Below, piece by piece: positions 19 to 59,300 of a stretch of DNA of 64,000 nucleotides. The stretch's first letter is position 1. Each line of letters starts with the position of its first letter. This DNA comes from an uncultured virus (IMG/VR IMGVR_UViG_3300032893_002794) (lineage: Duplodnaviria > Heunggongvirae > Uroviricota > Caudoviricetes): the IMG/VR virus record IMGVR_UViG_3300032893_002794; one strand, 5' to 3'. Under the pieces are notes generated by a model. That model made no database searches. It saw only the letters and a program-made list of their open reading frames with translations, and was not told the DNA's origin. The translations under genes and the position numbers were made by a program.

Positions 19-1587
19 GTCGCGAGGGCAGCGCAGGGGCCCGAACACTGCGAGGGGATCACGTCACCGGGATAGCTGGTCACAATGTCATTGTCGCGAG
101 GGCGGCGCGGGGGCCCGAACACTGCGAGCATGGGCCCAGACTAGGACAGAGATTTTCGATGCGAGGGTCGCGAGGGCTGCGCAGGGGCCTGAACACTGCG
201 AGGAGAAATGCGCTGGCCAAGTCAGCTGTGGAGCAAACGTTGCGAGGGCGGCGCGGCGGCCCGAACACTGCGAGTGGGTCCGTGTGAGCACACTTCAACG
301 TCCGCTCAGGTCGCGAGGGCTGCGCAGGGGCCTGAACACTGCGAACAAACGACGGTCGAAGGTTGCTTGGTCGCGAGGGCGGCGCGGGGGCCAGAGCACC
401 GCGAGGGGCGATGTCGTCGAGTCGCGAGGACCGGTTGTTGGTTCGAAGGTAACTTTGTTCAATCGTCGCGAGGGCGGCTCGGGGGCCAGAGCACCGCGAG
501 ACACTGAGTAGAGGAGATCAGTTCTTCTCTCAAAGAGTTGAGAGGGCGGCGCGAGGGAGGAACCATGGGAATTGATGTTTCGAGGGCAGCTCAGAGGCCC
601 GAACACTGCGAGTTGTAGTAGAGGATGTTGTTGCGAGGGCGGCGCGGGGGCCAGAACACCGCGAGGAGAAATGCGCTGGGCAAGTCAGCCGTGGAGCAAA
701 CGTCGCGAGGGCGGCGCGGCGGCCCGAACACCGCGAGGTGGCCATGTGTTTCCATTGAGTCTCTATGTGACGGGATTTGTATCAAGGAGTTGCGAGGGCG
801 GCGCGGCGGCCCGAATACCGTGAGGGAGGAACCATGGGAATTGATGTTGCGAGGGCGGCGCAGGAGCCCGAACACTGCGATCATCGAGATGATCAAGTTT
901 TTTTCGTTTTTTTTCGTCGATATCATGTCGCGAGGACAGCGCGGGGGCCCGAATACTGTGAGCTTGGGTCCTGACGAAGTTGCGAGGGCGGCGCGGGGGC
1001 CCGAACACCGTGAGGTACTCGGTTCGCGTCGGAGATTAGAAGTGATCGAGGTTGTGAGTATGGTGCGGGGGCCAGAACACCGTGAGCTGATCTCTTCCTA
1101 TTGATGCGAGGGTGTCGCGGGGGCCCGAACACCGCGAGTTGACCTCTTCCTGTTGATGCGAGGGCGTCGCGGGGGCCCGAACACTGCGAGAGAGCGCAGC
1201 TTCAGTACCTGAGGATATCGTGGACTAGTCGCGAGGGCGGCGCGGGGGCGCGAGATTCCGCACTGTCGCGAGGGCGGCGCAGGGGCCCGAACACTGCGAG
1301 GGCGACCTCGCTAGACACGAACGCGCTGTAAGAGTCGTCGCGAGGGCGGCGCAGGGGCCCGAACACTGCGAGTCTTCGGGAGGAGACGGTGATGTCCATC
1401 CCAGCCTTGTCGCGAGGGCGGCGCAGGGGCCCGAACACTGCGAGGGTCAGAATCCCCTCCCGGAACCCACCCAGTAGGAGCAGGTCGCGAGGGCGGCGCA
1501 GGGGCCCGAACACTGCGAGTACTTCATCGGGTTCTTGTCTGATCTCTCGAAGTAGTGAGGGCGGCGCGGCGGCCCGAATACCGCGAG
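19..1587 (+). CRISPR. CRISPR array 1 (atypical/degenerate; probably continues left of the window), 36-nt repeat GTCGCGAGGGCGGCGCAGGGGCCCGAACACTGCGAG
   Basis: 22 full-length repeat copies (starts 19,93,167,239,310,370,465,577,630,702,789,846,927,979,1051,1103,1155,1265,1337,1409,1484,1552) plus 3 internally deleted copies (421,537,1228); spacers 10-51 nt. Orientation inferred from a 3' stem CGCAG/CTGCG followed by 2 nt, as in Cas12m repeats. Confidence 0.95.
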
Positions 1588-1687: not shown

Positions 1688-3748
1688 ATGAAGCGGAAGA
1701 AGTCGAAGCTCCCATCTCGGGTATACAAGTATGCCCTGCGACCCCCGACGCTCAATGCCGAGCTCGTCGACGAGTCGCACTGTGAGTCGAGGCGATATTA
1801 CAACAAGCTCGTCACGATCGAGAATCGCCGGCGACACTTCTACCGTCTCTGCCGAGCCAAGTACTTCCCGGAGTATGCTCGCGCGGAGGAGGACGTCAGC
1901 GCGCTCGAGCTGAGGCTCGAGGAGGAGCGCACTTCCATCTTGAGCAAGAAGTCCGAGGGTAGGACGAGGCAGGTGAGTGACGCTGACCGGGGGAGCGTTG
2001 ATCAGATCCTGGCGGAGCTCAAGCTGGCGCGGAAGCGGGTCGTCGAGCTCGGGCTGCCGATACGGATAGTGGAGCACGAGCTGCGTGTGGTGAAGCTCGA
2101 AACCGAGCGAGCGGAGCTTGCTGGAGCAGGCGACGAGGACGGGGCTCGAGAAGTTGTCGAGAAGCTAGTGAAGCTGGTCAAGAAGCTCGCTAAGTTGCGC
2201 GAGAGGCTCGCGAAGATCTTGAACGAGACCGCGGTTGTCGAGCGGGTGCGCGAGGCTGTCGCGAGGATGCGCGAGGATGTGGAGGTCCACGACGAGGAGG
2301 CGCTCGAGGCCGTCAAGGCGCTGCGGTCTAGTCTCTACTGGGGCACTTACCTGCTTGTCGAGAAGGCGTTCGAGCAGGCCTCCGCGAAGTCGAAGTATGA
2401 CGTTGCGTACGATGATACGCCTTCGCATCTGCTCAAGAGCCGCATCGGTGTTCATTGGGTTGGAGGGACGTCTGTGGAGGAGGTGCTCTCGAACGATACG
2501 CTCATGCAGATAGTAGATCCGCCGGAATTCCGGCAGACGAAGAGTGGGATCTACAGGCCCAGGTACAAGAGGGACGAGCAGGGCAACATCATCTACTGCA
2601 TGCTGAGGTTCCGGGTTGGGTCGGTCGGCAAGAAGAAGGAGCCCCTCTGGGCGGAGCTTCCGCTCGCCTACGATCGGCCGCTGCCGGTTGACGGTCGCAT
2701 CAAGTTTGCCTATGTTACGAGGCGTCCGCTGCGGGAGCGCAATCCATGGCAGTACTACCTGTGCGTGTCGGTTGAGGCGGCGAGCTTCGAGCGCACGCTG
2801 CCCCACGTGACCCAGGAGGGGACGACAACGGTCAATTTTGGTTGGCGGCAGCTCGACAGCGGTAACATCAGGGTCGCGACGGTAAACCGTGACGGAGGGA
2901 AGGTGGAGTATGTCGAGATCCCGAAGTACTTCGTCGACGGCCACGTGAAGTGCAGGAAGCTGCAGGGTCTGCTCGACGAGAAGTTCGAGGCCGTCAAGAA
3001 GGAGATCGCCGGGTGGATCTCGTCGAGGGAGCGGCATTTGCCGGGGATGCTGCCGGAGCTGTTCGTCGAGAGCTTCGAGCACGTCACCATGTGGAAGTCG
3101 CAGCACAAGCTTTGCGAGCTCGTGCGCTACTGGGAGGAGCACAGGGTGGAGGGGGACGACGGCATCTGGTCGGTGGTCGACGAGTGGCGAGGGAGGTACT
3201 TGCACCTCCATGACTGGATGACTAACGCGAGGCGGAGACTGCTCGGCTGGCGCCGCGACTTCTATGCGAGGGTGGCCAAGGATCTGGTGATTACGTCGGC
3301 TCAGGTGGCGATAGATACTTTCAAGATCGCCGACGTGGCAGAGCGACCGGAGGCCGAAGCTGTCGAGGAGGGGGGCGAGAGGGCGAGGTGGAACCGGGTG
3401 GTCGCGGCGCCGAGCGAGCTCCGGAGGGCTATAGAGGTGGCGGCCAAGAAGTACCATTGCCTAGTGCTGGCTGCGCCCACTGTGGACGGCACCAGGAGGT
3501 GCAATGTCTGCGGGGAGATCTACGAGTGGGATCCTGCTCGGGAGTTCGTGCACGCGTGCCCTGGGAAAGATGGTTCTGGGTGCTCGGAGTGGGATCAGGA
3601 CGTCAACAACACCGACAACTTGGTCGATGCCGTTGCGAGCGGCGACGTGGTGCCGTTGGTTCGGCCGGCTGAGCACAGGGATGGCGAGGACTTGATCTCT
3701 AGTGAGCAGTTGCCCTATGGCATCGCTCGCAAGATGCTGGGCAAGTAG
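1688..3748 (+). CDS. cas12m: Type V-M (V-U1) CRISPR effector, Cas12m-like, non-canonical RuvC
   Basis: 686 aa between two arrays. Motifs collinear with Cas12m as I recall it: LYWGTY, LRFRVGS..PLWAELP..RPLP, VNFGWR (RuvC-I, N383), WKSQHKL, RRRLLGWRRDFYARVA, AIDTF (RuvC-II, D543), AAPSELRRAI, TRRCNVC..C..C zinc finger, WDQDVN (RuvC-III, D638). Confidence 0.85.
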   Translation: MKRKKSKLPSRVYKYALRPPTLNAELVDESHCESRRYYNKLVTIENRRRHFYRLCRAKYFPEYARAEEDVSALELRLEEERTSILSKKSEGRTRQVSDADRGSVDQILAELKLARKRVVELGLPIRIVEHELRVVKLETERAELAGAGDEDGAREVVEKLVKLVKKLAKLRERLAKILNETAVVERVREAVARMREDVEVHDEEALEAVKALRSSLYWGTYLLVEKAFEQASAKSKYDVAYDDTPSHLLKSRIGVHWVGGTSVEEVLSNDTLMQIVDPPEFRQTKSGIYRPRYKRDEQGNIIYCMLRFRVGSVGKKKEPLWAELPLAYDRPLPVDGRIKFAYVTRRPLRERNPWQYYLCVSVEAASFERTLPHVTQEGTTTVNFGWRQLDSGNIRVATVNRDGGKVEYVEIPKYFVDGHVKCRKLQGLLDEKFEAVKKEIAGWISSRERHLPGMLPELFVESFEHVTMWKSQHKLCELVRYWEEHRVEGDDGIWSVVDEWRGRYLHLHDWMTNARRRLLGWRRDFYARVAKDLVITSAQVAIDTFKIADVAERPEAEAVEEGGERARWNRVVAAPSELRRAIEVAAKKYHCLVLAAPTVDGTRRCNVCGEIYEWDPAREFVHACPGKDGSGCSEWDQDVNNTDNLVDAVASGDVVPLVRPAEHRDGEDLISSEQLPYGIARKMLGK

Positions 3749-3777: not shown

Positions 3778-5859
3778 GTCGCGAGGGCGGCGCAGGGGCC
3801 TGAACACTGCGAGCTCTCTATGGAACTCTCTGCTCTCGAAAGAAACGCCGGTCGCGAGGGCGGCGCAGGGGCCTGAACACTGCGAGGTCTTCTCGGGGCG
3901 GTCGATGATGGCGGCGGGAGTGCCGGTCGCGAGGGCGGCGCAGGGGCCTGAACACTGCGAGGTTCTTGTAGATCGGAATATCAATTTTTCCGAAACCGGT
4001 CGTGAGGGCGGCGCAGGGGCCTGAACACTGCGAGGTTCTTGTAGATCGGAATATCAATTTTTCCGAAACCGGTCGTGAGGGCGGCGCAGGGGCCTGAACA
4101 CTGCGAGGATTTCGCCGATCCGGAGCTCTTCACGAAATTCCTGGTCGTGAGGGCGGCGCAGGGGCCTGAACACTGCGAGCGTCCCCCACCGGCATCGGTT
4201 TCCAGAGACAGTCCACCTCGTCGTGAGGGCGGCGCAGGGGCCTGAACACTGCGAGGGCTAACCAGTCTGTCACCGTATCCGAGTCACGAGCCGGTCGTGA
4301 GGGCGGCGCAGGGGCCTGAACACTGCGAGGACGACCTTGTAGCACTCACGCCGGACGCAGACGGGAAGGTCGTGAGGGCGGCGCAGGGGCCTGAACACTG
4401 CGAGGTCGGGAGAGTGTTCTAGGAGCCTCTGAGCCTCTGACGAAGCACTAGTCGTGAGGGCGGCGCAGGGGCCTGAACACTGCGAGGGATCGTCCTTGGC
4501 GCGACTTGGGGAGAAGGCTCGAGTCGCGAGGGCGGCGCAGGGGCCTGAACACTGCGAGGTCTCACCCGAGGCCCTGAAGCTGGCTCGCAAGAAGGGGTCG
4601 CGAGGGCGGCGCAGGGGCCTGAACACTGCGAGAACGCAAAGGCCCTGCCTCCCGCAAACTCGAAGGAAAGTCGCGAGGGCGGCGCAGGGGCCTGAACACT
4701 GCGAGCCTTTCTCGCGCGTGCGGCCAGGCAGGCGACCAAGGGGTCGCGAGGGCGGCGCAGGGGCCCGAACACTGCGAGCGACTGTCCGACAGCGAAAATG
4801 GCGCTTTTTGTCGCGTCGCGAGGGCGGCGCAGGGGCCCGAACACTGCGAGGGCGACCTCGCTAGACACGAACGCGCTGTAAGAGTCGTCGCGAGGGCGGC
4901 GCAGGGGTCCGAACACTGCGAGTCTTCGGGAGGAGACGGTGATGTCCATCCCAGCCTTGTCGCGAGGGCGGCGCAGGGGCCTGAACACTGCGAGCCCCGC
5001 TTGAATTCCCCGGCCACGACGACCAAGAAGTCGCGAGGGCGGCGCAGGGGCCCGAACACTGCGAGAGAATCGCGCGGCTTGTGCAGGTGTCGATCGACGA
5101 GTCGCTAGGGCGGCGCAGGGGCCTGAACACTGTGAGGACAACGAAAGCTGATATTCGGCAGAGCTAAAGGACGTCGCGAGGGCAGCGCAGAGGCCTGAAT
5201 ACTGTGAGGAAAGGCGAGAAATTGAGCATCAGAGCAGTCGTCAAGTCGCGAGGGCGGCGCAGGGGCCTGAACACTGTGAGGAATGGTTGCCCGGGGTAGG
5301 ACAGCGGATCGGGAGAGTCGCGAGGGCGGCGCAGGGGCCCGAACACTGCGAGCGCATAGGGGCCGTGCAGAGGAGGCGGCCAAGATTTCGGTCGCGAGGG
5401 CGGCGCAGGGGCCCGAACACTGTGAGAGCAGAGTGCGAGAGAGGGCGACTAGGTCAAGCCAGGTCGCGAGGGCGGCGCAGGGGCCCGAACACTGCGAGTC
5501 GCGTGGCCCCTTCGAGCGCGGAGGAAGTATCACGTCGTGAGGGCGGTGCAGGGGCCCGAACACTGCGAGTTGATGCCCACCGTCTGTGGGTTGCTGACCT
5601 GGTCAGGTTGTGAGGGCGGCGCAGGGGCCCGAACACTGCGAGGAGACGCCAAGAAGAGGTTCGCGTACAGTACAGACCGTCGCGAGGGCGGCGCAGGGGC
5701 CCGAACACTGCGAGCACGGAAGTAGCCTTGCAACATCTGAAAATCATTGTGTGTCGCGAGGGCAGCGCAGGGGCCTGAACACTGCGAGCAGGCAACCAAT
5801 CGAGGACACAATGGCAGCAACACGTCGCGAGGGCGGCGCAGGGGCCCGAACACTGCGAG
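3778..5859 (+). CRISPR. CRISPR array 2 (canonical): 29 repeats, 28 spacers of 35-46 nt
   Basis: Same 36-nt repeat, first copy 29 nt after the cas12m stop; repeat starts run from 3778 to 5824; followed by a 15-nt spacer and a collapsed repeat GTCGTGAG (5875-5882). Confidence 0.98.
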
Positions 5860-6096
5860 GAGCGATGTCGTCGAGTCGTGAGGGAATTATCGATGCACGT
5901 CTGGGCATTGAATCATTCGGACGATCTCGTCTGCGTCTTCATAGTCGTAGTTTGGCGACAGTGAGATCACGAGGCGCAAGAACACCCACACCCAGGCTTC
6001 ACCGTTGAGTACGGCTGGGGCCAGTCGACCGCGGAATTGGGCTATGTTGTTTTTGTGCTTCACAGTTTCACAGTAAATTGACTGCGCAAGCGGGCA

Positions 6097-7107
6097 TTAT
6101 GGCTTCTTGGCCTTGTTTCTCATTGCCTTCCGGAGCCAGGATTTGTCAGCGTCTTCCCGGGCTATCACTTCCTTGAGGGCGCGCGAGTCGATCACCTCCT
6201 CGAAGGCCTCGCGTATCAGGCGACTCAAGACGTTGGGCGGCAGGGCGTCCACCTCCCACGAGGACTCGCCGTGCTTCCTCACGTAGTCGGATGCTCGGGG
6301 GTCGGTCATCTTGGCAGGGTTCGGTGGTGGGTCGTACTCCTCGACCTGCTCTGTGGTGAGAGCGATCTTCGAGACCTCGAGGTCGATGCTGTGGCGGCTG
6401 AACTCGAGGATCCGATCTCGGATGTCTCTGACCATGTCCTCTCCGGACGGGTCATGGTCCCCTAGGTAGAAGATGATCGCGGGCTTGGTCGTTGACCTGA
6501 AGTCTCTTATCTTAGACTCCAAGTACTGGTCTACTTGGTTGTCGGACCACTCGTGGGTGTCCATCTGTCTCTTTGTCTCGCGGACGATGGCAAAGTAGTC
6601 CTGGATGCTCCACCCGACGGCTGTCTGGATGCGCTCGGCGGACTCTCGCATGGCGCTCGCTGACGAGTAGCCCTTGTTCACCATGAGCGTCACGTGGAAC
6701 TCTCGAGCGAGCGGGGCTAGGACGCCAGCGAGGGCCTGCTTCTCAACCCACAGCTCGACGTACTTGGGCTGGTTGCTCCACCGCGGGAGCCGGTAGGCCC
6801 TGAGTGCCGACTCGACCAAGGAGGAGATGGAGGTCCACTCAGAGGGACGTTCAGGCACGCGGCCTCGGTCTTCGATCGCGTCCCAGTCGACGAGGCCGGC
6901 GTACCGCGCGTCGGTGAGGAGGGCGGTGAGCTGCTTGTACGCGGCCGGAGTGTTCGCGATGAGATCTCGAGCCACGAACTGGTAGTAGAGCTGGCGGGCC
7001 GTCAGTCGCAGTCCTTGGGACTGGTACTCCTCGACGATCTCCACTATCTTCGTGATCTTCGCCATTGATTCTGGTCGGAATTTGGTGCTTCGAATTTTAT
7101 CTATCAT
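6097..7107 (-). CDS. Topoisomerase VI-A/Spo11-like (JetD/Mini-A type) winged-helix + TOPRIM protein
   Basis: LTARQLYYQ (catalytic Tyr region), VELWVEKQAL (TOPRIM Glu), GYSS, FYLGDHDPSG (DxD), WEVDAL; AAAGGAGG RBS before ATG at 7107. Confidence 0.75.
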   Translation of the reverse strand: MIDKIRSTKFRPESMAKITKIVEIVEEYQSQGLRLTARQLYYQFVARDLIANTPAAYKQLTALLTDARYAGLVDWDAIEDRGRVPERPSEWTSISSLVESALRAYRLPRWSNQPKYVELWVEKQALAGVLAPLAREFHVTLMVNKGYSSASAMRESAERIQTAVGWSIQDYFAIVRETKRQMDTHEWSDNQVDQYLESKIRDFRSTTKPAIIFYLGDHDPSGEDMVRDIRDRILEFSRHSIDLEVSKIALTTEQVEEYDPPPNPAKMTDPRASDYVRKHGESSWEVDALPPNVLSRLIREAFEEVIDSRALKEVIAREDADKSWLRKAMRNKAKKP

Positions 7108-7170
7108 GACCTTGAAGCCTCCTTTAGTTATCATCTTATCACGATACAAGGACAGGTGATTAGTTTTTTA

Positions 7171-7201
7171 TTTTGACACTTGCTTCTTTATCGGCTATCT
7201 T
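7171..7201 (+). promoter_or_regulatory. sigma70-like promoter
   Basis: TTGACA(7173)-17 nt-TATCTT; 19 bp identical to 8091-8109. Confidence 0.65.
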
Positions 7202-8048: not shown

Positions 8049-8090
8049 AGTCGCGAGATTTCTTAGATTTTTTCTCCAGCTACATTTTCT

Positions 8091-8121
8091 TTTTGACACT
8101 TGCTTCTTTCTGGTGGATAAT
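8091..8121 (+). promoter_or_regulatory. sigma70-like promoter
   Basis: TTGACA(8093)-17 nt-GATAAT. Confidence 0.65.
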
Positions 8122-8742: not shown

Positions 8743-9762
8743 CTACTCGAGGTTTCCGATCCACACCACCTTCGGGGTCTCGCTCCGCATGGTCTCGTCT
8801 CTCAGCACCTCGGCGAAGCTCTGGTGCATGGGGTGGTCTCTGAGGTGTACGGCTCGAGCTCGGTACGAGGCGTCGTCGAACGTCCCCCAGTTGAGGAACT
8901 TCTGGAAGTGGATCTCGTCGGCGTGGAGGTCGGCGGCGAGCCTCACGAACGCCGGCATCTCGGCATAGTTGGCCGCCTGGACCACGAAGTTGAGCACCAC
9001 CCTGTCGACGAGCTCCTGCTCGCGCAGCGACTTGATGAAGTATAAGTTCGACCACGGCATCGCCAGGGGGCGGCTGCTCCCGTCCCGGCGGAGCTGGGCG
9101 TAGGTGGCGTCCGTGGCGGCGTCTAGCGACACCTGCAGCTCCCTGACGGTGGTCTGCCCGTCGGTCCAGCGGTTGGGTCCTACTAGGCGTTCCCACCTCT
9201 CCGGGTCGAGGAGGCGACCGTTCGTGCAGATCGCCAGTCTCAGGTTGGGGCACCTCGAGCGGTCGATGCTGTCCACGAGCGCCTGGTAGTGGCGGGAGGC
9301 CAGGGGCTCGCCGCCGCCGGCGAGGTACATGACGTCGACCAGCTCGAGCAGGGGCGACCTGGCCAGTCGAGCCGTGATCTCGGACATGGTGTAGGTCTCA
9401 TCTGGCGAGGGAGCGAACAGCTGTTGCCGGCAGGTGGGGCACGCCAGGTTGCAGGTGTGGTCGTAGGCGACGGCCAGCGCGTGGACGCGGAGATCTCGGG
9501 AGGGTGCGTACTCGCCTTGCACCTCGGTGATTGGTCCGGAGGGCGCCGGCAGGTAGGGGCACTGCCGGCAGCTCGAGAACGTCTTGTCGGCGACGTGGCG
9601 CCTCATCTCTGCTACCTTGTCGCCGCGCCACAGCTCCGAGGGGTCGGTGGTCAAGATGCTGCCCACGGGTCCGCAGGTCCACAGGGGGCAGCAGACGTAG
9701 ACGTCTCCACCTCGGTAGATCCCGAGGGTGTGGTCGGCCTGGGTGCAGTTGTAGTGGGTCAT
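8743..9762 (-). CDS. radical SAM protein with N-terminal SPASM/twitch-like Cys domain
   Basis: GDVYVCC..CRQCP then YDHTCNLACPTC, GGGEP, TNG, VSLDAA; ATGA overlap start at 9762. Confidence 0.85.
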   Translation of the reverse strand: MTHYNCTQADHTLGIYRGGDVYVCCPLWTCGPVGSILTTDPSELWRGDKVAEMRRHVADKTFSSCRQCPYLPAPSGPITEVQGEYAPSRDLRVHALAVAYDHTCNLACPTCRQQLFAPSPDETYTMSEITARLARSPLLELVDVMYLAGGGEPLASRHYQALVDSIDRSRCPNLRLAICTNGRLLDPERWERLVGPNRWTDGQTTVRELQVSLDAATDATYAQLRRDGSSRPLAMPWSNLYFIKSLREQELVDRVVLNFVVQAANYAEMPAFVRLAADLHADEIHFQKFLNWGTFDDASYRARAVHLRDHPMHQSFAEVLRDETMRSETPKVVWIGNLE

Positions 9763-10400
9763 CTCTTGTTCCACAGGCATGTGTACTTGCGCACCTCGTA
9801 CGATCCCGGCTCTAGGAGCTCGGCGATGGCCTGATCTTCTCCGGAGAATCCGATCTCGAAGTCGTGGATGCCGAGATGGCCTCCTACTTTTACTTTTGGC
9901 ATGTAGGCGAGGAGCTGTTCCCGAGTGTCTTCGTACGTGTGGATCGTGTCGATGAAGACGAAGTCGAGGCTCTCGTCCGCGTAGCACGAGGCCTGATCTT
10001 GGCCACGTCTGACTATCAGGTTGATGTAGTCAGAGAGCCCCGAGCGAGCAATGAAGCTCTCGGTGACGTTTCGCTGTCCTATCGGGGAGCTCAGTCGCAT
10101 CACCTCCTCGCGGGCGGCCTCCTCAGCTATTGGAGGGCACCACGAGCTCGGGGAGTGCACTGACGGAGAGTAGAACTCGACGATCTTGTGGTGGGGGATG
10201 AAGAGCGGGTCGACGGCGTCGAAGTATATGTGTTTTTTTGATCGGTGGATCTCCGAGGCCATGTAGACGGCTGACCTGCCGAACATGACCCCCACCTCGA
10301 CGAACCTTGCTCCACTAGCGGGAGCTCTCTCGACTGCCTCAGTGTAGACGTCCTCGAAGTCGAACCAGCCCGGGATGTCTCTCCACGTGATCTTGTCCAT
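9759..10400 (-). CDS. class I SAM-dependent methyltransferase (Methyltransf_24-like)
   Basis: FVEVGVMFGRS, FDAVD, LDFVFIDTIHTYE, GGHLGIHD. Confidence 0.85.
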   Translation of the reverse strand: MDKITWRDIPGWFDFEDVYTEAVERAPASGARFVEVGVMFGRSAVYMASEIHRSKKHIYFDAVDPLFIPHHKIVEFYSPSVHSPSSWCPPIAEEAAREEVMRLSSPIGQRNVTESFIARSGLSDYINLIVRRGQDQASCYADESLDFVFIDTIHTYEDTREQLLAYMPKVKVGGHLGIHDFEIGFSGEDQAIAELLEPGSYEVRKYTCLWNKR

Positions 10401-10409
10401 CTGACTCTC

Positions 10410-11441
10410 CTATGATATTTCTTTGAGTGTGGCGCTCTCGCGTCGGACGCTGTGGCTTATACCGCAGAGGGCGTAGCACTTGTTCATCTCTCTCCTCACG
10501 TCGTCAGCTCCCAGCCAGAATGACCTGAGGTCGCCTCTCCGCTCGAGCTTCTCGCCGCGGAAGCGGTCTGAGAAGCACAGTCGGGCGGTGCCGCGGAGGT
10601 CCACCATGACGTTGCGCTCGCCGCTGTTGCAGACGTGCTCACTCGTGGCGATCTTGTAGTACCAGTCCACGGCGTTCTCGAAGCTGCCCCTCATGAGCGA
10701 GTCGCAGTAGCTCTCCACCTGCTCTATCCAGACCGGGGAGAGGCGGAGGGAGTACTTCTGGTCGCACTCCCTGAGCTGCCTAGCGAGGTCTGCGCCGTCG
10801 ACGGAGTGGTGCTTGACGAAGAAGTGGTCGAACGTGCCCAGGCCGAAAGACGGCTGGAGCATGTTGATCTTGAGCTTGTCGGCGCCTACGTCTCGCAGCA
10901 CCAGGTGGTAGAGGGAGTCTAGATCTCGGCTGCTGTCGTCGTAGATGAGGGCCATGGCGAAGATGCGCCGGAAGGCGAGGGACCGGTCGCTCGACCTGGC
11001 AGACACCAGCAGCCGGAGGGCTCGCACGGCGGCCTGGAAGGCGCCCCTCGTCCCGCGGGAGGAGTCGTGCACGCTCTCGAGGTGGCTGTCGAGGGAGACA
11101 GTGATCTCGTCCGGGCCCTCGGACAGCACGTGGCGAGCCTCATCCATATTGTTGATGGTCGTGCCGTTGGTAACGGACAGAGAGCGAAGTCCGAGGGCTC
11201 GGCAGGCGGCGCACGCGCGGAAGTACGAGTCTCTCGCGAGCATGGGCTCACCGCCGCAGATGACGACCGACCCTCTCGGGGATAGATCGGCGAACTCGTC
11301 GATCACGTCGCACACGCGGTCGATCGACATTTTGGACTCTGGCGGCGGCTCTTTGGTCGTCCAGTAGTAGCAGTGCTGGCACCTGAGGTTGCACTCCGTG
11401 TTGATCGTGGTGAACAAGAATTTCGGCGGCGGCCTCGTCAT
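10410..11441 (-). CDS. radical SAM protein (C-terminal Cys cluster)
   Basis: CNLRCQHC, GGEP, TNG, VSLDS, HDSSRG; ATGA overlap start at 11441. Confidence 0.85.
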   Translation of the reverse strand: MTRPPPKFLFTTINTECNLRCQHCYYWTTKEPPPESKMSIDRVCDVIDEFADLSPRGSVVICGGEPMLARDSYFRACAACRALGLRSLSVTNGTTINNMDEARHVLSEGPDEITVSLDSHLESVHDSSRGTRGAFQAAVRALRLLVSARSSDRSLAFRRIFAMALIYDDSSRDLDSLYHLVLRDVGADKLKINMLQPSFGLGTFDHFFVKHHSVDGADLARQLRECDQKYSLRLSPVWIEQVESYCDSLMRGSFENAVDWYYKIATSEHVCNSGERNVMVDLRGTARLCFSDRFRGEKLERRGDLRSFWLGADDVRREMNKCYALCGISHSVRRESATLKEIS

Positions 11442-13174
11442 GGGAGCGGCTTCCGGTAGACGAACGAGCTCCACGGGGGCGGCACCTCGAAGGAGTCGCC
11501 CAGCACATCGCGCACGGCCAGCATGTGGCCCTCGTAGGGGGGGTAGAAGTCGTGCCCGGCTATCACACCGCCGGGTCGTAGCTTCGGGAGGTAGAGTCGC
11601 AGTATGGAGGCGGTGTCCTCGTAGGTGTGCGCGGTGTCGAAGAACACGAAGTCGAGGCTGCCGTCCTCGTAGTGCGAGGCCCGCTCCTGGCCGATCGACT
11701 TGACGAGGTTGACGTGAGATGTGAGCTCGGCCAGCTCCAAGAAGCGCTTCACGATCTGTTCGTGATCTTTGAGCTCTCGCACGGCTCGCCTCATGGCGAG
11801 CACGCCTGGCTTGGGAGCGGACCAGAGCCTCGTCGATGGCTCGAGCAGCTCGTACTGGTACTCGAGGTCGGAGGGATATGACAGGGCGAACTTGTCGACG
11901 GCGTCGAAGGCGATCTTCTTGCCGCTCTTGGCGATGGCTCTGGCCATGTAGGCCGTCGACCTGCCGTAGAGCACTCCTATCTCGACGAATCGGGCACCGT
12001 CGCTTGCCATATTGACGGCGTCGTCGTAGATCTGCTCGAAGTCGAAGTAGCCGGGCAGGTCCTGCCACGTGACGAGCGGGCGCTCTGTCTCGACGAGCTC
12101 GACTCTGGGAGTAGGTTCAGCGTCGAGGGGAGGTGTCACAGCGTCGGTCGGCTGGAAGCCAACCCAGAGGACGCGGTCCGGGTGCTCGGACTCGACCTGC
12201 GCCATGTTCTTCGCGAGCACGTCGCGCAGAGGGTGGGAGGGCAGGTGGACGGCCCGCTCGGCGTACTTGGTCCCGAGCCTCCAGGTTCCGTCTATGAGGC
12301 TACCGGTGTCCTCGTAGGTGCCTAGGTTGGCGAGCTCCACGAACTTGACGAGGTCAGCTTCGTAGTGTTGCGCGAGATCCATGAAGGCTGGTATCTCGCG
12401 CACGTTGTTGGCCTGCACGACGAAGCTGAGTCGCAGGGAATCGAGTCGGCCTCTCGTCCTCAGTCCCCGCAGGAAGCGCAGGTTCTCGCAGAGCATGTCC
12501 CAGTTGCCCCGGCGGTTCTCGCGGTACGTCTCGGGACAGGAGGCGTCGATGGACACCTCCACGGAGTCCACGTGGCGTGCGCCGTTGCCGATCTTGGTCC
12601 AGTTGTCGGGGGTGGCGAGGAGCCCGTTCGTGTAGAGGGATATCCGCAGTCCAGGGTAGCTCGAGGGAGTCAGGCCCCTGAGGAAGTCGAAGTATACGTC
12701 GGACGCGAATGGGTCGCCGCTGCCGGTGATGTGGAGGCGCCTCGTCGTCTCCAGCACCCTGCTCGACAGGACGCGCGAGTGTATGAGGTCTAGCCGCCTC
12801 TTGGTGAGGCCGCCGACACCGAAGTGGAATCTCTCCTTCCTGCAGGAGGGGCAGGCTAGGTTGCACCTCCGGTCGTACGACCAGTGGAGGTCAGTGACCG
12901 TGGTCGACGCGGGTGTCTCGCGTGGGTCGAGTGGTGGTTGAGGCACGACGATGCCGCCGTGCTTCGGCAGGAATGGGCACCTCCTGCAGTGGCGGTAGCT
13001 GCCGTCTCTGGCGCTCTCCCGCACGGACTCGGCCGCCTCGCTGTGGAGCACGGTGGGCAGGTCGTCGTCGATGAGGTTGCCGATCGGCACCGGCAGCCAG
13101 GTGGGGCAGCACAGCCACACGTCGCCGTTGAAGTCCACCTCGAGTCGCGAGAATGGTATCGTGCAGGCTCCCAT
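11438..13174 (-). CDS. SPASM-like + radical SAM + C-terminal methyltransferase fusion
   Basis: GDVWLCC, CNLACPSC, GSGDP; C-terminal FVEIGVLYGRS..DTAHTYE..GHDF paralogous to 9759-10400. Confidence 0.85.
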   Translation of the reverse strand: MGACTIPFSRLEVDFNGDVWLCCPTWLPVPIGNLIDDDLPTVLHSEAAESVRESARDGSYRHCRRCPFLPKHGGIVVPQPPLDPRETPASTTVTDLHWSYDRRCNLACPSCRKERFHFGVGGLTKRRLDLIHSRVLSSRVLETTRRLHITGSGDPFASDVYFDFLRGLTPSSYPGLRISLYTNGLLATPDNWTKIGNGARHVDSVEVSIDASCPETYRENRRGNWDMLCENLRFLRGLRTRGRLDSLRLSFVVQANNVREIPAFMDLAQHYEADLVKFVELANLGTYEDTGSLIDGTWRLGTKYAERAVHLPSHPLRDVLAKNMAQVESEHPDRVLWVGFQPTDAVTPPLDAEPTPRVELVETERPLVTWQDLPGYFDFEQIYDDAVNMASDGARFVEIGVLYGRSTAYMARAIAKSGKKIAFDAVDKFALSYPSDLEYQYELLEPSTRLWSAPKPGVLAMRRAVRELKDHEQIVKRFLELAELTSHVNLVKSIGQERASHYEDGSLDFVFFDTAHTYEDTASILRLYLPKLRPGGVIAGHDFYPPYEGHMLAVRDVLGDSFEVPPPWSSFVYRKPLP

Positions 13175-13182
13175 CTTTCCTC

Positions 13183-14202
13183 CTACGGTCGGTTGAAGCC
13201 CATCCAGTAGATCTTGACCTTCTCGTGGGGTTCGCGCTGTCTTATCTCCTCGAGCACAGACAGGAGCTCGGGGTGGCGCGGGTGCGACGCGAGCTGGACG
13301 GCCTTGCTGGAGTAGTCGGCCTCGTATTCTTGGTTCTTGAGATAGTTAAACCAGTCGCGTATCTCCATGAACGCCACGCAGTCGACGCCGTGGCTGGTCA
13401 TGAGGTCGAGAAACGCCGGCATCTCGTGGAAGTTGTTCTCCTGCACGACGAACATGGCGTGGAGCTCGAAGGGTCGCTGGCGGGATCGCTTCTCGCTGTT
13501 GATGAAGTCTAAGTTCGCGAGCAGGCGATTCCAGTCGCCTCCTCGGTTCTTCGCGTAGGTCTCCGCGCAGGCGGCGTCCACGGAGATCTGGATCTCGTGC
13601 AGGTTGAGGTGGTCGAGCGACAGGGAGCCCCACAGCTCGGGAGTGCAGAGCAGCCCGTTCGTGCAGAGTCCGACCCTGAGTCCGGAAAATCGCTCTGCTG
13701 ACAGTTGTCGCAGCAGCTCTCGCCCGTAGTGCGAGGCCAGGGGGTCGCCGCTGCCTGACAGGTGGAGTATGTTCACGCGCTCGAGCACGCCGCTCGCCAG
13801 CAGTTTCGACTGTATCGCGGCGACGGACCGGTGGTCGGCTTCTGAGAGTGAGAGGTGGCCCTTCCGGCAGGACGGGCACGCTAGGTTGCACGTCTTGTCG
13901 TAGGAGAGGTACAGGTGGTCGATCACGTCGGTGTCGGGCGCCGGCCCCCAGGGAACGACCGTCCCCTGCGGTCCGGGCAGGAAGGGGCAGCTCGTGCAGT
14001 GCCGGTAGCTGCCGTCCCTGACGCTCATCCTGATCTCCTGGGCTATCTTGCCGTGCCACAGGTCGAGCAGGTCATTGTCCATTATGTTTCCGATTTCGAG
14101 CGGCAGCCATGCCGGGCAGCACAGCCATACGGCTCCCTGGTAGCCGACCTCGAGTCGTATGAACGGGTTCCTGCAGTAGGTGTCTGGGTGGTTAAAATTC
14201 AT
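13183..14202 (-). CDS. radical SAM protein with N-terminal SPASM/twitch-like domain
   Basis: GAVWLCC, YDKTCNLACPSC, GSGDP, ISVDAA. Confidence 0.85.
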   Translation of the reverse strand: MNFNHPDTYCRNPFIRLEVGYQGAVWLCCPAWLPLEIGNIMDNDLLDLWHGKIAQEIRMSVRDGSYRHCTSCPFLPGPQGTVVPWGPAPDTDVIDHLYLSYDKTCNLACPSCRKGHLSLSEADHRSVAAIQSKLLASGVLERVNILHLSGSGDPLASHYGRELLRQLSAERFSGLRVGLCTNGLLCTPELWGSLSLDHLNLHEIQISVDAACAETYAKNRGGDWNRLLANLDFINSEKRSRQRPFELHAMFVVQENNFHEMPAFLDLMTSHGVDCVAFMEIRDWFNYLKNQEYEADYSSKAVQLASHPRHPELLSVLEEIRQREPHEKVKIYWMGFNRP

Positions 14203-14779
14203 AGTGGAATGTCTCCGCGTCTTTACTGAAGTGGTTCAAGAAGAGTCTCATAGTCTCGGCGTCGTAGTACGCGTGGTAGTCCGGTCTCTCCACCCTGCGG
14301 GCGTTGCACTTGGCCAGTGTGGAGCGCGGCTTCTTGATGAGGTCGCATACGCGGTCCCAGTCCTCCTGGATGCGCTCGAACTGCATGAGGAAGTCCACGG
14401 CCGGGGGGGAGTCGGGGCCCTCGCACAGTGTGTCTCGCTGGAGCCTCGTGAGGTGGGAGTAGGCGTGCTGCTCTCCCTCGGGGCGGGATCTGTCGAATTG
14501 AGGCAGATTGCGCAGCAGATCTCTGAAGGTCATGTCCTTGTCGATCCAGCCCATGTACTGGCAGTGGTGCCAGGCGGACACGAGTCGGTCCCACGGGTTC
14601 CTAACTATCGAGAAGCGGAAGTAGTCCCTGTAGCTGGTGAGGTACTCTGGGGTCTGGGTGCCGGAGCACATGTGGAGGGCGTCTCTGTCCAGCCATTCTA
14701 GTCCGAAGGCGCTCAAGATCGACGTGCTCGCCACCTTCAGCTGCTGGACGAAGATGCACTTGTGCTCGTGGGATATCAT
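14192..14779 (-). CDS. sulfotransferase family 2 protein
   Basis: MISHEHKCIFV..KVASTSI (5'-PSB-like), FSIVRNPWDRLVSAW (3'-PB), FERIQEDW, Y..YYD. Confidence 0.85.
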   Translation of the reverse strand: MISHEHKCIFVQQLKVASTSILSAFGLEWLDRDALHMCSGTQTPEYLTSYRDYFRFSIVRNPWDRLVSAWHHCQYMGWIDKDMTFRDLLRNLPQFDRSRPEGEQHAYSHLTRLQRDTLCEGPDSPPAVDFLMQFERIQEDWDRVCDLIKKPRSTLAKCNARRVERPDYHAYYDAETMRLFLNHFSKDAETFHYEF

Positions 14780-15552
14780 GTTATCTCATTGCACTTCCAG
14801 TAGCGCTCTGCTACTTCTCTGCATGACCACTCGGTCATGCGGTCGTCCATCGTCCACGGTCGCTCGACGATGATCTTCTTGCTCATGTCGATGAGGTCCG
14901 CTCTCGGATCTCGGCGGCTCGTCATGGCATCCCCTATCGACAGGTTCTCGTAGCGCTTCTTGTCCGAGTGTGAGATGTGCTCCAGGGCGACGACGTCGAC
15001 CTCTCTCCACACGAGCCCGTTGACCGACATGCGGAAGTAGAGATCGTCGTCCTCTCGGCCGTAGTGGACAAGTCTCTCGTTGTAGCCGTTGATCGCTAGT
15101 ACGTCTTTAGGGTCTACGAGCAGCGTGCCGCTCAGGTTGCGCTTGTCGCTGACGAGGGGAGGTACCGTGCGCCAGTTGCCGGCGTAGAAGTCGTCTCCCC
15201 GCAGGGGGTGTAGCCTCAGGAAGTCGGGCCGCACGAGCACGTCGTTGTCGAGGCGGAGCAGTATGACGTCATTGCATTGGAGTCCGAGAAGTCCACCTCC
15301 TGAGGCTATGCGCACCTCCAGGTTGTGGCACTTGGAGTTCTGCCAGTGCGACTGTCCCTCCGCGCGGTAGATGCGCACGCGAGGGTCGTCCAAGAAGTCC
15401 ACGGCATCTCGGATGGGGATCTTTGAGCCCCAGTCGACTATGATGACCATGTCTACTTCCTTGAGAGCCAGCCAGGTGGACAAGGCTCGGCACAGGGGCC
15501 ATAGCCGGTCGCGCGATCCTGTTGTAACGATGACTCTGCGGTCTCCTGTCAA
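14776..15552 (-). CDS. glycosyltransferase (GT2/GT7 galactosyltransferase-like)
   Basis: IIVDWGS, LRLDNDV, INGYNERLVHYGREDDDLYFR; TTGA overlap start with GAGGAG RBS. Confidence 0.8.
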   Translation of the reverse strand: MTGDRRVIVTTGSRDRLWPLCRALSTWLALKEVDMVIIVDWGSKIPIRDAVDFLDDPRVRIYRAEGQSHWQNSKCHNLEVRIASGGGLLGLQCNDVILLRLDNDVLVRPDFLRLHPLRGDDFYAGNWRTVPPLVSDKRNLSGTLLVDPKDVLAINGYNERLVHYGREDDDLYFRMSVNGLVWREVDVVALEHISHSDKKRYENLSIGDAMTSRRDPRADLIDMSKKIIVERPWTMDDRMTEWSCREVAERYWKCNEIT

Positions 15553-16556
15553 GGTATCTCCTCTCGTGCCAGAGCCAAGATCGTCGTGTGGGGGCGACAG
15601 TCGTGGGCGAAGAAACTGTCTGAGAGTTGGGCCGTGCGCACTCTCTCGTCGCGTAGAGATGGATCTCTCAATACCCGCACGAGCTCTGTGTGCAGTGGGT
15701 GGGAGGGGAACTGCACGGCCCGCTGCCTGTACTCGGCGTCGCTCCACGCTCCCCACTGGTTGACGGCGTCGAATCGCACGCAGCTCGCCTTCCACGACAG
15801 GGCGAGCTCGACGAACGCCGGCATCTCGCGGAAGTTGTTGGCCTGGACGACGAAGTTGACCCTCAGCGGGACGCCGCAGTCGACTATCCTCGACAGGTTG
15901 GCGCAGAGGCGCTCGAAGTCTCCACCCCTCCGGTTCTTGGCGTAGGTCTCGGCGGTGGCGGCGTCCACTGAGATCTCAGCTCCGTATATCGGCTTGCCGT
16001 ATCCGCGTATCTTGTCGACGACCTGGGGACTGAGCCAGAGGCCGTTCGAGCACAGTATGATGCCGAGCTGCGGGTGGCAGTCTATGTCTTTCCACCTCCT
16101 CATGAGGTCCCAGAACAGCTTCGAGGCCAGCGGCTCGCCGCTGCCGGATATTGACACTGATCTCGCGATCTTGTAGATGCCGGACTTGATGGTGGCCTCG
16201 TGCACTTCTCGCGACCTGGGGCTGTGCTTGACCAGATCTCTGCGACAGCTGGGGCAGGAGATGTTGCAGGTGTAGTCGTAGGCTAAGGCTAGGCAGTCTA
16301 TGGTCGAGAGGTCGATGCTCGCGGGTGGCGGCCGTCTCTCGATGAGCTCTGGGCACCTGCAGTCTGCGCAGTAGCGGAAGCTCTGGTCTAGGATGGACTG
16401 CCTCTTCTCAGCCGCGAGGGGTCCGGTCCATATCGCGGAGACGTCGTCGGTCAGTATGTTGCCCACGGGCAGGGTGTTCCAGGTGAACCCGTAGCACAGG
16501 CTCGCCTCACCGTTGGTGTAGATGTGCAGTCTCGAAAAGGGCGTGGGGCAGAACAT
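15549..16556 (-). CDS. radical SAM protein with N-terminal SPASM/twitch-like domain
   Basis: CPTPF..NGEASLC, YDYTCNISCPSC, GSGEP, ISVDAA. Confidence 0.85.
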   Translation of the reverse strand: MFCPTPFSRLHIYTNGEASLCYGFTWNTLPVGNILTDDVSAIWTGPLAAEKRQSILDQSFRYCADCRCPELIERRPPPASIDLSTIDCLALAYDYTCNISCPSCRRDLVKHSPRSREVHEATIKSGIYKIARSVSISGSGEPLASKLFWDLMRRWKDIDCHPQLGIILCSNGLWLSPQVVDKIRGYGKPIYGAEISVDAATAETYAKNRRGGDFERLCANLSRIVDCGVPLRVNFVVQANNFREMPAFVELALSWKASCVRFDAVNQWGAWSDAEYRQRAVQFPSHPLHTELVRVLRDPSLRDERVRTAQLSDSFFAHDCRPHTTILALAREEIP

Positions 16557-16563
16557 CTCTAGC

Positions 16564-17091
16564 TCACGGTTTTGGGTGCTTCCGCCAGGGGGCTCGGAGG
16601 ACGCGGAGGTAGTCCGAGGGGTGGGAGTCGAGCCAGGCCACCCGGTTGACCACGCAACGGAAAAATTCGACCAGCTCGGTTTTAGGGCTCTTCGCGGGCT
16701 CGTTCGCGCACACGAACGATCGCGGGTTGAAGCGGTCGCCGATGTTTCTTGACCCTCGGTAGATCGGTATGCTCAGGTCCATCATGGCCTCTACTACTCG
16801 AGGGGAGGCCAATGTCGAGGGGTCTTCGCAGGTGACGGTGAGCTTGTACGGTGACAGTGGTATAGTAGGATCTTCGATGGGGTGGACTACGTCGACTGGT
16901 GCGTATTTTGACAGCATCTCGACGAGGAGTATCGACTCGGGGGTGTCGAGGGGGTGGCGGACGCAGCAGCACCTCGTCTTCCAGCTGATAATCTCCTCGA
17001 GCACTTTGTCGGGGGGCTTGTCCATGGTTCTCATGGGGCACGACGGAGTCGCGCTGTGGATGAGATTGGTGTGGAGGGTGCTGGAGGTCAT
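16564..17091 (-). CDS. degenerate GT10 (alpha-1,3-fucosyltransferase)-like C-terminal domain protein
   Basis: YKLTVTCE..EAM..SIPIYRGS..FNPRSFV resembles GT10 YKF.LAFEN..IPIYWG..FNP.SFI but lacks the Y.TEK motif. Confidence 0.5.
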   Translation of the reverse strand: MTSSTLHTNLIHSATPSCPMRTMDKPPDKVLEEIISWKTRCCCVRHPLDTPESILLVEMLSKYAPVDVVHPIEDPTIPLSPYKLTVTCEDPSTLASPRVVEAMMDLSIPIYRGSRNIGDRFNPRSFVCANEPAKSPKTELVEFFRCVVNRVAWLDSHPSDYLRVLRAPWRKHPKP

Positions 17092-18095
17092 TTTGCAGGT
17101 AGTAGCTTGAGCAGGTCGCCGAGTCTCACGTGCTCTGCTCTAAGGTGGGGGGACGTCATCACGTCTAAGAGCTCGTCGTGGAGGGGGTGCGATGGGCTGC
17201 CGACGTCGAGATCGGCGAATTCTTCCCGAGACAGGTGGCCCCAGTCCTGGACGCGCAGGAAGTTGACCTTGACGCCGAGATCTCTCATCTCTAAGGCGAC
17301 GTCGGGCATCTCCCGGAAGTTGACGGCTGACACCACGAATATCGCTACGAGGTCGATATGGTCGGAGTCCTTGATCTCCTGGAGGGAGAGCAGGTTGGAC
17401 TTGACGACCTTGAAGTTGCCGCCTCGCACCTTGGCGTACGTCTCGGGGGTGGAGGCGTCCAGCGATCCACAGATCTGCGACACGCGGCCGCGCCACCCGA
17501 GGGCCTCCAGCTCGCGGGCACCGAAGGTCGTGAGGTTGGTCAGGAGCTCCAGCCTCAGCCTCGGGTGCTCCCGCAGTGCCTGGCTGGCGAACTGGCAGAG
17601 CTCCTCGCTCAGCGAGAACTCGCCCGAGCCGCAGAGCTTGAGCACGTCGGCCGCGGGCAGGGAGCGCCGCACGCTCGACAGGACGGTCGCGAGGCGAGGG
17701 TCAGATCCCCTGTAGTGAGTCTTGCGGCAGGAGGTGCAGGCGAGGTTGCACGATCTCTCGTTGGAGAGCGAGAGTCGCAGGGGGGCTCTGGGGTAGGGCA
17801 TCATCTCCGCGGGCTCCAGGGGTCGCAGGGCCATCGTGTGGCGCCACCAGTCGGCTGTGGGGACGATAGGCTGCTCCAGTATGGGGCATGTCGAGCGGCG
17901 GCAGTACTTGTAGTCGCCGACTAGGATGTCCTGCCGGATGCGGACTGCAGTGGGCGACCACCAGACGTCGATCACTTCCCGACCCACCAAGCTCCCGACG
18001 GAGGTCGGCAGGTGGCAGCACAGGTACACGCAGTGGTCGTGGCCCACCTCGCAGTGTTGCCACGGTACCGGGCACACGAGTCCCTTCATGTCCAT
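17088..18095 (-). CDS. radical SAM protein with N-terminal SPASM/twitch-like domain
   Basis: CPVPW..VYLCC, CNLACTSC, GSGE, SLDAST. Confidence 0.85.
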   Translation of the reverse strand: MDMKGLVCPVPWQHCEVGHDHCVYLCCHLPTSVGSLVGREVIDVWWSPTAVRIRQDILVGDYKYCRRSTCPILEQPIVPTADWWRHTMALRPLEPAEMMPYPRAPLRLSLSNERSCNLACTSCRKTHYRGSDPRLATVLSSVRRSLPAADVLKLCGSGEFSLSEELCQFASQALREHPRLRLELLTNLTTFGARELEALGWRGRVSQICGSLDASTPETYAKVRGGNFKVVKSNLLSLQEIKDSDHIDLVAIFVVSAVNFREMPDVALEMRDLGVKVNFLRVQDWGHLSREEFADLDVGSPSHPLHDELLDVMTSPHLRAEHVRLGDLLKLLPAK

Positions 18096-49538: not shown

Positions 49539-49557
49539 TTTTCTCTTCCTCTTCGAG

Positions 49558-50085
49558 CTATATGGTCAGCCGGGACGGTCTCGACCCCGGCAGGTAGAGC
49601 GAGATGCCGTGCTCCGCCATGGTGTCGTCGACGGCCTTCTTCGCGAGGTAGAAGTGCTTGGTGGTGGGCCGGCTCGCGCCGGACATCTTGGCGAGTCGGT
49701 TCGCCTGGCGCAGGACTGCCACGCGGTAGTCGTCGTGGGCGATCTCGGTCTGGATGGGCATCTCGTAGCCGAGCGAGAATGATTGCGACCGGTTGAAGAC
49801 TCCGGATTGTTTGAGGACCTCGAGGGTGCGCCTGGCCTGGGGGTCGCCCCGCCGGGCGAGCCTCTCGAGCAGGGCGACCTTCTTCTTGATCTCACCGAGC
49901 TTGCGCCTCGCGCGAGGGTCGCCGGCGTCGGCGCTCACCTTGGTGGCGGCGACGTCAGAGACCATCTTCATCTCGTCGGCCGTGAGGCGGAAGTCCACCT
50001 CGTCCGAGAGGGCGATCTTGGGCCTCGTGGCCGCGCCGCGGGCCCAGTTCCGCCTGGTGGTGCCGAATATGAGGTCGCGGGCCAC
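49558..50085 (-). CDS. protein with MARDLIFGTTRRNW leader and AxxGDPxA repeats
   Basis: shared leader and helical repeats. Confidence 0.7.
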   Translation of the reverse strand: MARDLIFGTTRRNWARGAATRPKIALSDEVDFRLTADEMKMVSDVAATKVSADAGDPRARRKLGEIKKKVALLERLARRGDPQARRTLEVLKQSGVFNRSQSFSLGYEMPIQTEIAHDDYRVAVLRQANRLAKMSGASRPTTKHFYLAKKAVDDTMAEHGISLYLPGSRPSRLTI

Positions 50086-50087
50086 GG

Positions 50088-51221: not shown

Positions 51222-51230
51222 TGTGGTCTC

Positions 51231-51473
51231 CTAGCTGTCGGTTCTGATCGCCACCTCGGCTTGCGAGGGGGCCGTCTTCTCTTCTCTGTTGGCGGGCGAC
51301 ACGAGCGCCCGGAGCGCCCGGGCGAGGCTGCGCCACCTCCCCGGGGGGTTGTCGACGTGGCACCTCGACTGGCACTTCCGCAGGGAGTCCTTGATCGTGG
51401 TCACCGTCCTGGCGATGCCTGCCACCATGTCCTTGAGCTCTCGTATTTCCTGCTCGATGTTTATTGAGGCCAC
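51231..51473 (-). CDS. hypothetical protein
   Basis: GAGGAG RBS, coiled-coil, CQSRC. Confidence 0.55.
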   Translation of the reverse strand: MASINIEQEIRELKDMVAGIARTVTTIKDSLRKCQSRCHVDNPPGRWRSLARALRALVSPANREEKTAPSQAEVAIRTDS

Positions 51474-51483
51474 GTACTGCTCC

Positions 51484-52331: not shown

Positions 52332-52342
52332 GATCTTCTCCT

Positions 52343-52660: not shown

Positions 52661-52826
52661 GCGGACACTCCTCTGCGAGGGGGTACTGTGGAGGGGGCGT
52701 CTCGGCGTGAGAGCCTCGCGGTGTCCACCCGGTAGAAGCGAAGGTTCGGGGAGACCGCTCGGGCCGCAGAGCTAATGCAAGTAGACTACAGCCGCTCGGG
52801 GAGGGTGTCAACTACCGATCGAGCTC

Positions 52827-53264: not shown

Positions 53265-53321
53265 AGACCGGTAAGCTACACGCGCCGTCAGCGGCTAGTC
53301 AATACTATTTGGGGCAGCGTC

Positions 53322-53750: not shown

Positions 53751-53771
53751 CGAACGTCCTCCCTATCTTCC

Positions 53772-59289: not shown

Positions 59290-59300
59290 CAGGACATCTC

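Follow-up and report, generated by a model that had tools for sequence, protein, structure and literature searches.

A probable phage locus of the Cas12m type with degenerate upstream repeats and a modest signal of stem conservation

Organization of the CRISPR locus

The window, i.e. the complete stretch of 64,000 nucleotides analysed here (IMG/VR record IMGVR_UViG_3300032893_002794), harbors a cas12m-like gene between two CRISPR arrays. A scan of the whole window and both strands with the 36-nt consensus repeat retrieved 52 copies, all of which lie on the plus strand within 19-1587 and 3778-5859; the minus strand and the rest of the window contain none. The features of the locus are the following.

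19-1587, plus strand: array 1 (upstream, degenerate), with 22 full 36-nt repeats in 19 haplotypes
537-555, plus strand: internally deleted repeat of 19 nt, seen in the sequence (repeat family D5)
613-1154, plus strand: stretch with guide-length spacers at 613-629 (17 nt) and at 963-978, 1087-1102 and 1139-1154 (16 nt each)
825-845, plus strand: 21-nt spacer within the 613-1154 stretch
1228-1254, plus strand: internally deleted repeat of 27 nt, followed by a 10-nt spacer
1265-1300, plus strand: consensus repeat copy, the reference for the position numbering of the fold
1265-1444, plus strand: two repeat-spacer units with a second copy at 4815-4994 in array 2, 99% identical (family D8)
1552-1587, plus strand: final repeat ahead of cas12m (100 nt from its ATG), with an intact fold; it corresponds to the repeats 19-69 nt ahead of cas12m in five of 13 relatives
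1688-3748, plus strand: cas12m-like effector gene (686 aa), between the two arrays
3778-5859, plus strand: array 2 (downstream), with 29 repeats and spacers of 35-46 nt
5860-5884, plus strand: trailer of a 15-nt spacer and a 5' repeat fragment, a near-copy of 406-429 in array 1
6097-7149: gene matching PHROG 6247 (DNA topoisomerase label, E 1e-91), the next gene after array 2, present in 76 phage records

Besides the 22 full copies of array 1, the consensus scan counted one broken copy at 1228. The array is truncated by the start of the window, and the public contig X1 adds one further repeat and spacer upstream. Its sequence recurs with 0 mismatches in two other assemblies (over 95-1690 and 148-1690), which may share reads with the window, and contigs of the runs X2 and X3 match parts of it without differences, thus indicating that the variants of array 1 are not assembly noise. 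The assemblies disagree at the 3778 end of array 2. Leader polarity as deduced from genome G001, which lacks the first array 2 spacer, was downgraded because locus L013 shows a different order. The degenerate ends of the relatives' downstream arrays are distal to the gene.

Degenerate repeats outside the main array and beside the effector gene, as found here, recur in five of 13 relatives, each of which is represented by more than 1 kb of upstream sequence; in these five, two of which are sisters, a repeat ends 19-69 nt before the cas12m ATG. The upstream repeat series of L023 (1111-3207) is, by eye, broken up by an IS200/IS605-like element (tnpA and tnpB). A long inverted repeat, likewise seen by eye, lies just 5' of the Cas12m homologue on the viral contig L012 (2913-2986).

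Effector and host element

The effector is by sequence closest to Cas12m (PDB 23vw, E 4.6e-45; profile E 3e-101), and the top four Foldseek matches of its predicted fold (pLDDT 87.6) are Cas12m structures. It thereby corresponds in sequence and fold to the TnpB-derived effector of about 600 aa that is typical of type V-M. The RuvC triad reads N383-D543-D638, i.e. N-D-D, which is one of the three types (D-E-D, H-D-D or N-D-D) described for the family in the Cas12m literature, where N-D-D is reported among non-cutting members. The protein also has a zinc finger and a long REC coiled coil, about 70 residues longer than in many relatives. Adaptation genes, which type V-M lacks, were not found at the locus of this incomplete element: none of the 38 window ORFs scanned against Pfam matched a Cas family, and no Cas1 was found in any of the five genomes or records G001-G005. 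The promoter scan called none before cas12m. Judged from its sequence, the locus represents a small variant of type V-M (Cas12m). For window positions 1714-1813 and 2327-2473, run X2 contains diverged cas12m alleles or close paralogues from the same habitat, whose changes are mostly three bases apart.

The element is probably a large phage. Five relatives sit in IMG/VR records, and the gene downstream of array 2 is shared with phages; none of the 63 window ORFs scanned against PHROGs matched a capsid or terminase. The same locus is carried by L041, recorded as an archaeal MAG, an assignment that is probably due to mis-binning. A near-identical pair of sigma-70-type promoters (7165-7201 and 8085-8121; around 7173 and 8093) drives short plus-strand genes. 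Further downstream, the minus strand of 8743-18095 encodes five radical SAM/SPASM genes, a sulfotransferase and a glycosyltransferase as well as two class-24 methyltransferase domains, one of them fused to radical SAM. Three very large proteins (1617, 1664 and 1126 aa), one with a 366-bp repeat period, are located at 44685-62681; they have no match in Pfam, PHROG or NCBIfam, and an Atlas search with two large window proteins gave no usable match.

Fold of the repeat and its variation in array 1

Positions 8-11 of the 36-nt repeat pair with 21-24 in a pseudoknot that leaves position 12 unpaired, and positions 14-20 pair with 28-34 in a stem with an internal G19.A29 mismatch and a 3-nt loop. A G13.A35 pair caps the scaffold, and the last base of the repeat is G. 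An earlier note on this DNA had parsed the consensus into a CGCAG/CTGCG stem and a GGGC/GCCC pairing, which is right for the 36-nt repeat; absent from that parse were G20-C28, which lengthens the stem across G19.A29, and G13.A35. Single-sequence folding, whose model does not cover pseudoknots, gives no preference for this structure (z -0.52), and Rfam contains no match.

Pair 17-31 is A-T in nine, G-T in four and G-C in nine of the 22 copies and never A-C. The double change claimed for copies 370, 630, 702, 1103 and 1552 is indeed present as G17-C31, and it also occurs in copies 465, 789, 979 and 1051. All tolerated changes at other pairs of array 1 are one-sided G-U changes. Taken over the 19 haplotypes, 94.7% of the cells are paired, and a strict fold descriptor is passed by 15 of the 22 copies. 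Pair breakers had been named at 465, 577, 927 and 1051; these four are borne out, but the full count is seven of 22 (370, 465, 577, 630, 846, 927 and 1051). Among the additional ones, copies 370 and 630, which had served as good examples, break a pair by G8.A24, and copy 846 does so by A20.C28. Two-sided change is confined to one of ten pairs (17-31; shuffled mean 0.5, with 232 of 500 shuffles equally high), and none of the four pseudoknot pairs shows it.

Pairing was compared with chance by permuting columns among positions that carry an identical base, either stratified by CpG class or not, a procedure that keeps both ancestry and mutation spectrum. The stem of array 1 has two broken states where 5.2-5.4 are expected (P 0.03-0.05), and its share of tolerated states is 0.71 versus 0.4 (P 0.012); without pair 17-31 the signal weakens to P 0.09-0.10. 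The pseudoknot has three broken states against 3.6 expected (P 0.5-0.7; 0.49 in the permutation), and the number of two-sided states in the array, one versus 0.7-0.8, is at chance level (P 0.5-0.6). The proposal that stem and pseudoknot are kept by compensatory changes is thus overstated for array 1. The stem is broken less often than in the permuted controls (P 0.01-0.05) and the pseudoknot gives no signal, frequent compensation finds no support, and neither does a pseudoknot kept by compensation. Evidence within the array is modest and limited to the stem.

Pairing in related loci and the transcribed strand

A readable array is available for 13 related loci, which together with the window provide 14 consensuses. 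All of them fit a stem and a pseudoknot on the strand of the gene, with many pair types in both helices. The window repeat accordingly has, when read along the strand of the gene, the three marks of a type V-M scaffold, namely a 3' stem, a pseudoknot and a G.A cap. Covariation was assessed in five loci of the same register plus one window variant, selected visually among the 19 loci that have a repeat and excluding L015 due to its ambiguous register; nine of 11 pairs, including three of four in the pseudoknot, are two-sided, and 0 of 500 shuffles reached this value. The degenerate copies of eight relatives, some of which are close kin so that their independence is incomplete, exhibit 12 two-sided states versus 3.8 expected (0 of 4000 permutations), with 11 versus 2.6 expected in the stem and, for the downstream arrays alone, six versus 2.1 (P 0.008). 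The idea that the repeats are under selection as RNA fares differently in the two data sets: it is moderately supported for the stem of array 1 and strongly for the degenerate repeats of the relatives.

Single changes at Watson-Crick pairs lead in the pooled set to G-U 24 times and to A-C eight times (P 0.0035; 7:2 in the window alone). Unpaired sites lack such a bias (12 C>T changes over 25 C positions, 20 G>A changes over 45 G positions), and tolerated states of array 1 are not in excess if they are scored by minus-strand rules (P 0.47). The 24:8 ratio and the location of the stem on the gene's strand agree with the earlier suggestion of a plus-strand reading, and we infer that both arrays are transcribed on the plus strand.

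The last base of the scaffold

The last scaffold base of MmCas12m, C(-1), is read by His269 and Arg270 (Omura 2023, PMC10442227). The corresponding position of the window protein is occupied by Asp329-Arg330 and the repeat ends in G(-1), with the contact between Asp329 and the base being derived from the alignment with MmCas12m. The His-Arg reading of C(-1), a conserved yet not strictly defining trait of V-M, is accordingly not found in the window. Asp329/G(-1) is treated here as a variant of V-M because ApCas12m, by eye, likewise lacks the His; the residue is seen in the other seven of the eight characterised proteins (PMC11013384), and all eight repeats end in GAC (Table S5 there).

Among 19 loci, a G-ending repeat is accompanied by Asp in five of five cases and a C-ending repeat by His in 13 of 14; the remaining C-ending locus, L017, has an unreadable residue, so that His is found in 13 of 13 readable ones. 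Five further annotated loci all have His, and the three with a readable array all end in C. Combined, Asp is found in 5/5 G-ending and His in 16/16 readable C-ending loci. The tree needs two changes for the Asp/G pattern, with L029 on a long branch, and in the closest relatives, whose plus-strand repeat has a GAG end, the reading residue is Asp. It appears that the last repeat base and the protein residue by which, judged from the alignment, it is read have changed in concert. If so, a swap from His-C to Asp-G with at least two origins would provide a simple specificity switch for orthogonal compact Cas12m repressors.

Spacer lengths and targets

The short spacers between intact repeats of array 1 measure 16, 16, 16, 17, 21 and 24 nt. 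Spacers below 32 nt between intact repeats number 18 in the 14 loci, or 17 after merging one near-duplicate; the shortest of the 17 has 14 nt and six fall at 14-17 nt (P ~0.015). The P value of this floor is 1e-4 under a uniform and 0.024 under a triangular distribution, for a count that leaves out the array 1 spacers beside broken repeats (15, 21 and 10 nt), of which the 10-nt spacer is below the floor. According to the literature, the mature Cas12m guide measures about 17 nt, with the processing cut placed 2-3 nt inside the repeat, so that the shortened units would still yield full guides. Old spacers have a lower GC content than new ones (0.51 versus 0.59, P 0.001). Near-duplicate spacers differ within their first 17 nt, namely at position 15 in the pair 203/666 and at position 2 in the pair 406/5860.

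A search of the window for targets, with all spacers and on both strands, yielded none that is convincing, and the same holds for a set of 50,697 phage records, where E was 0.1-0.2 at best. In G001-G005 the best non-self match (E 0.01) falls in G003; it covers a 15-nt seed and lacks a known PAM. Two of about 48 distinct spacers were scanned against IMG/VR; one had no match and the other a 20-nt exact match that does not extend any further and is without a T- or C-rich PAM. Self-targeting was not found in two related phage records. The spacers have no match to a cas promoter at the cas12m leader, and the longest 5' seed match in the window has 11 nt; the hallmark of regulatory mini-arrays (crlRNA, Cre or scaRNA), i.e. 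a spacer matching a cas promoter beside a PAM, is accordingly not seen in the window. A preference of old spacers for ribosome-binding sites or start codons was rejected (eight of 61 old versus 16 of 116 new spacers, P 0.63). In L039 (6242-6258), a spacer agrees with the cas12m gene of its own locus in 16 of 17 bases, preceded by TTC, and it may target the cas12m of a rival phage or its own.

Origin and maintenance of the degenerate array

Starting from the sequence, the pair counts, homology and covariation, we propose, with a probability of roughly 0.6, that the locus produces V-M guides from plus-strand arrays whose old units erode under residual selection. Both arrays would be read on the plus strand, which is the strand of the gene, and Cas12m would trim the transcript into single guides, each repeat folding into the 3' stem, the 5'-arm pseudoknot and the G.A cap. 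By analogy with known members, the guides would direct the putatively non-cutting N-D-D effector to DNA, where its binding would obstruct the transcription or replication of rival elements. Array 1 would consist of old units that are eroding by C-to-T change, gene conversion and deletion. Units still able to load would be favoured, with stem pairs drifting via G-U and not A-C and spacers shrinking to about guide length, and the outer pseudoknot pair would be under weaker constraint. The last scaffold base is G rather than C, with Asp in the place of His on the protein side.

The main rival, which we regard as possible, holds that the variants were once leader-end consensuses, selected at that time and copied forward. 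Array 1 would today be a mosaic in decay, on which selection acts weakly if at all, and the conserved look of the fold would be a legacy of its history. This rival agrees with the two states of pair 17-31, since G17-C31 is the repeat of the sister locus L014 and A17-T31 that of L015, and with the block-wise change of the consensus along the array of L033. On the best parsimony trees, 1-2 changes suffice for position 17 and 2-3 for position 31, the broken copies at 537, 1228 and 1051 have persisted, and the lower GC content of the old spacers fits as well. However, private single changes also lean to G-U, a spacer-length floor near guide length is unexpected without present use, and A.C is missing at 17-31 despite the mosaicism of the copies (four-gamete test failed by 18 of 55 site pairs). 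With both 17-31 states being the repeat of a sister locus, selection may act at present or may have acted in the past, at the time when the variants were the array consensus.

A predominant role of array 1 at the DNA level is doubtful. The flanking repeats would then allow excision, gain or rearrangement of a cas12m cassette, as proposed for repeats 5' of cas12a, and Shmakov et al. (10.1101/2023.03.03.530964) describe such remnants for V-A. Both arrays have 180 bp in common, one X2 contig joins 1264 to 5824 and skips cas12m and array 2, and the X1 depth is 127 for the cas12m contig versus 209 downstream. The X2 joint, however, runs through the repeat itself, where 37 letters match both flanks, and may have arisen during assembly; the depth of a contig does not measure copy number, and the G-U bias would stay unexplained. 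Recombination can coexist with the proposed erosion under residual selection. Taken on their own, the X2 joint and the X1 depth may reflect a cas12m-less subpopulation or an assembly join.

Mutation without selection is a still less probable cause of the pattern. Plus-strand C-to-T change at CpG would generate G-U-compatible variants, and C>T is in fact seen at all six CpG cytosines of the repeat, with G>A at just one of the six CpG guanines; the duplicated spacers differ at CpG too, and mutation may account for some of the G-U excess. Nevertheless, the stem signal survives the CpG-stratified permutation (P 0.012-0.05), C>T and G>A rates are equal at unpaired sites, CpG is not depleted in the window (o/e 1.11), and the excess of two-sided stem states in the relatives is left over. 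Minus-strand transcription, by which the repeat would end in GAC like 8/8 characterised repeats in Table S5, is hardly credible given that this strand lacks a Cas12m stem (0/14 consensuses pass a descriptor built from plus readings), that the G-U bias speaks for the plus strand and that the closest relatives have GAG on the plus strand together with Asp.

On a more speculative reading, the old array in this Cas12m clade of phages may tentatively be seen as a fixed cassette of inherited silencers, the leader repeat as a feedback element of cas12m, and Asp-G(-1)/His-C(-1) as an orthogonal code. A fixed cassette would contain spacers pre-trimmed to guide length and scaffolds held in fold, silencing constant sites of the host or of rival phages; feedback would make the repeat 5' of cas12m a site for Cas12m binding and cutting in the gene's own leader; and the code would render these scaffolds orthogonal to other Cas12m by a one-residue swap. 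Should spacers be maintained at guide length, phages could make fixed regulators out of old CRISPR units. The fold itself was already known, and the natural variants mainly confirm it and bear on the strand; they also represent a ready mutational scan of the scaffold.

Comparison with known systems

Type V-M, its scaffold and its carriage in prophages and phages are already in print (see also PMC12607003, PMC10691335 and PMC11656645). Type V-M is further characterised by self-processing of its pre-crRNA, for which no tracrRNA is needed, and by PAM-dependent, non-cleaving binding of DNA, both of which are predicted here by analogy. The members compared here are MmCas12m (PDB 8hhl; Omura 2023, PMC10442227) and GoCas12m (8pm4; Bigelyte 2024, PMC11013384); the sequence of PDB 23vw is, by eye, that of TfCas12m in Table S3 of PMC11013384, and the N-D-D triad of the window is shared with PmCas12m (bioRxiv 10.64898/2026.03.26.714355). 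The window resembles the characterised V-M systems in its lone effector, 36-nt repeat, stem with pseudoknot and G.A cap, variable 5' seven bases, altered RuvC triad and REC coiled coil, and in that no cas1 was found. The fold matches the scaffold described for MmCas12m in PMC10442227, a likeness that the earlier note had pointed out, and the remark that the pseudoknot order is reversed relative to MmCas12m is confirmed by Table S5 of PMC11013384. In contrast to the V-M set, the window scaffold ends in G and goes with Asp, whereas all eight repeats in Table S5 end in C; the 7-bp stem register with the G.A mismatch and the long arrays that flank the gene on both sides are also unlike the characterised systems. 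A literature survey that covered few subscription journals yielded no account of degenerate Cas12m repeats that drift in a compensatory manner, and none of spacers at guide length, V-M upstream repeats or the Asp-G swap; preprint supplements may list G-ending repeats.

Two virus-borne loci are the nearest counterparts in setting. For MvCas12m of myxophage MV-1, no adaptation genes are reported and no spacer targets were found (bioRxiv 10.64898/2026.09.14.751636). In the GenBank phage Virus Rctr197k (KX853510), the trailer of the array is degenerate, its changes falling mainly in the loop, and some of the spacers are short. Unlike the window, both carry the D-E-D form of the triad and their only array is downstream, and Rctr197k combines His with a C-ending repeat. 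Its locus (L047, 3515-6931) comprises a Cas12m-like gene that is annotated as transposase-like, together with a CRISPR array; it bears on the preprint's claim of the first phage Cas12m.

Another comparison is offered by the CRISPR repeat-like RNAs, i.e. single repeat units 5' of cas12a and mini-arrays (Shmakov 2023, the preprint cited above). The window differs from these units in having more than 22 repeats versus 1-3 and no cas promoter match, and V-M is not described in the accessible part of that study. It shares with them degenerate repeats 5' of the effector gene, short spacers and a possible regulatory or recombination role.
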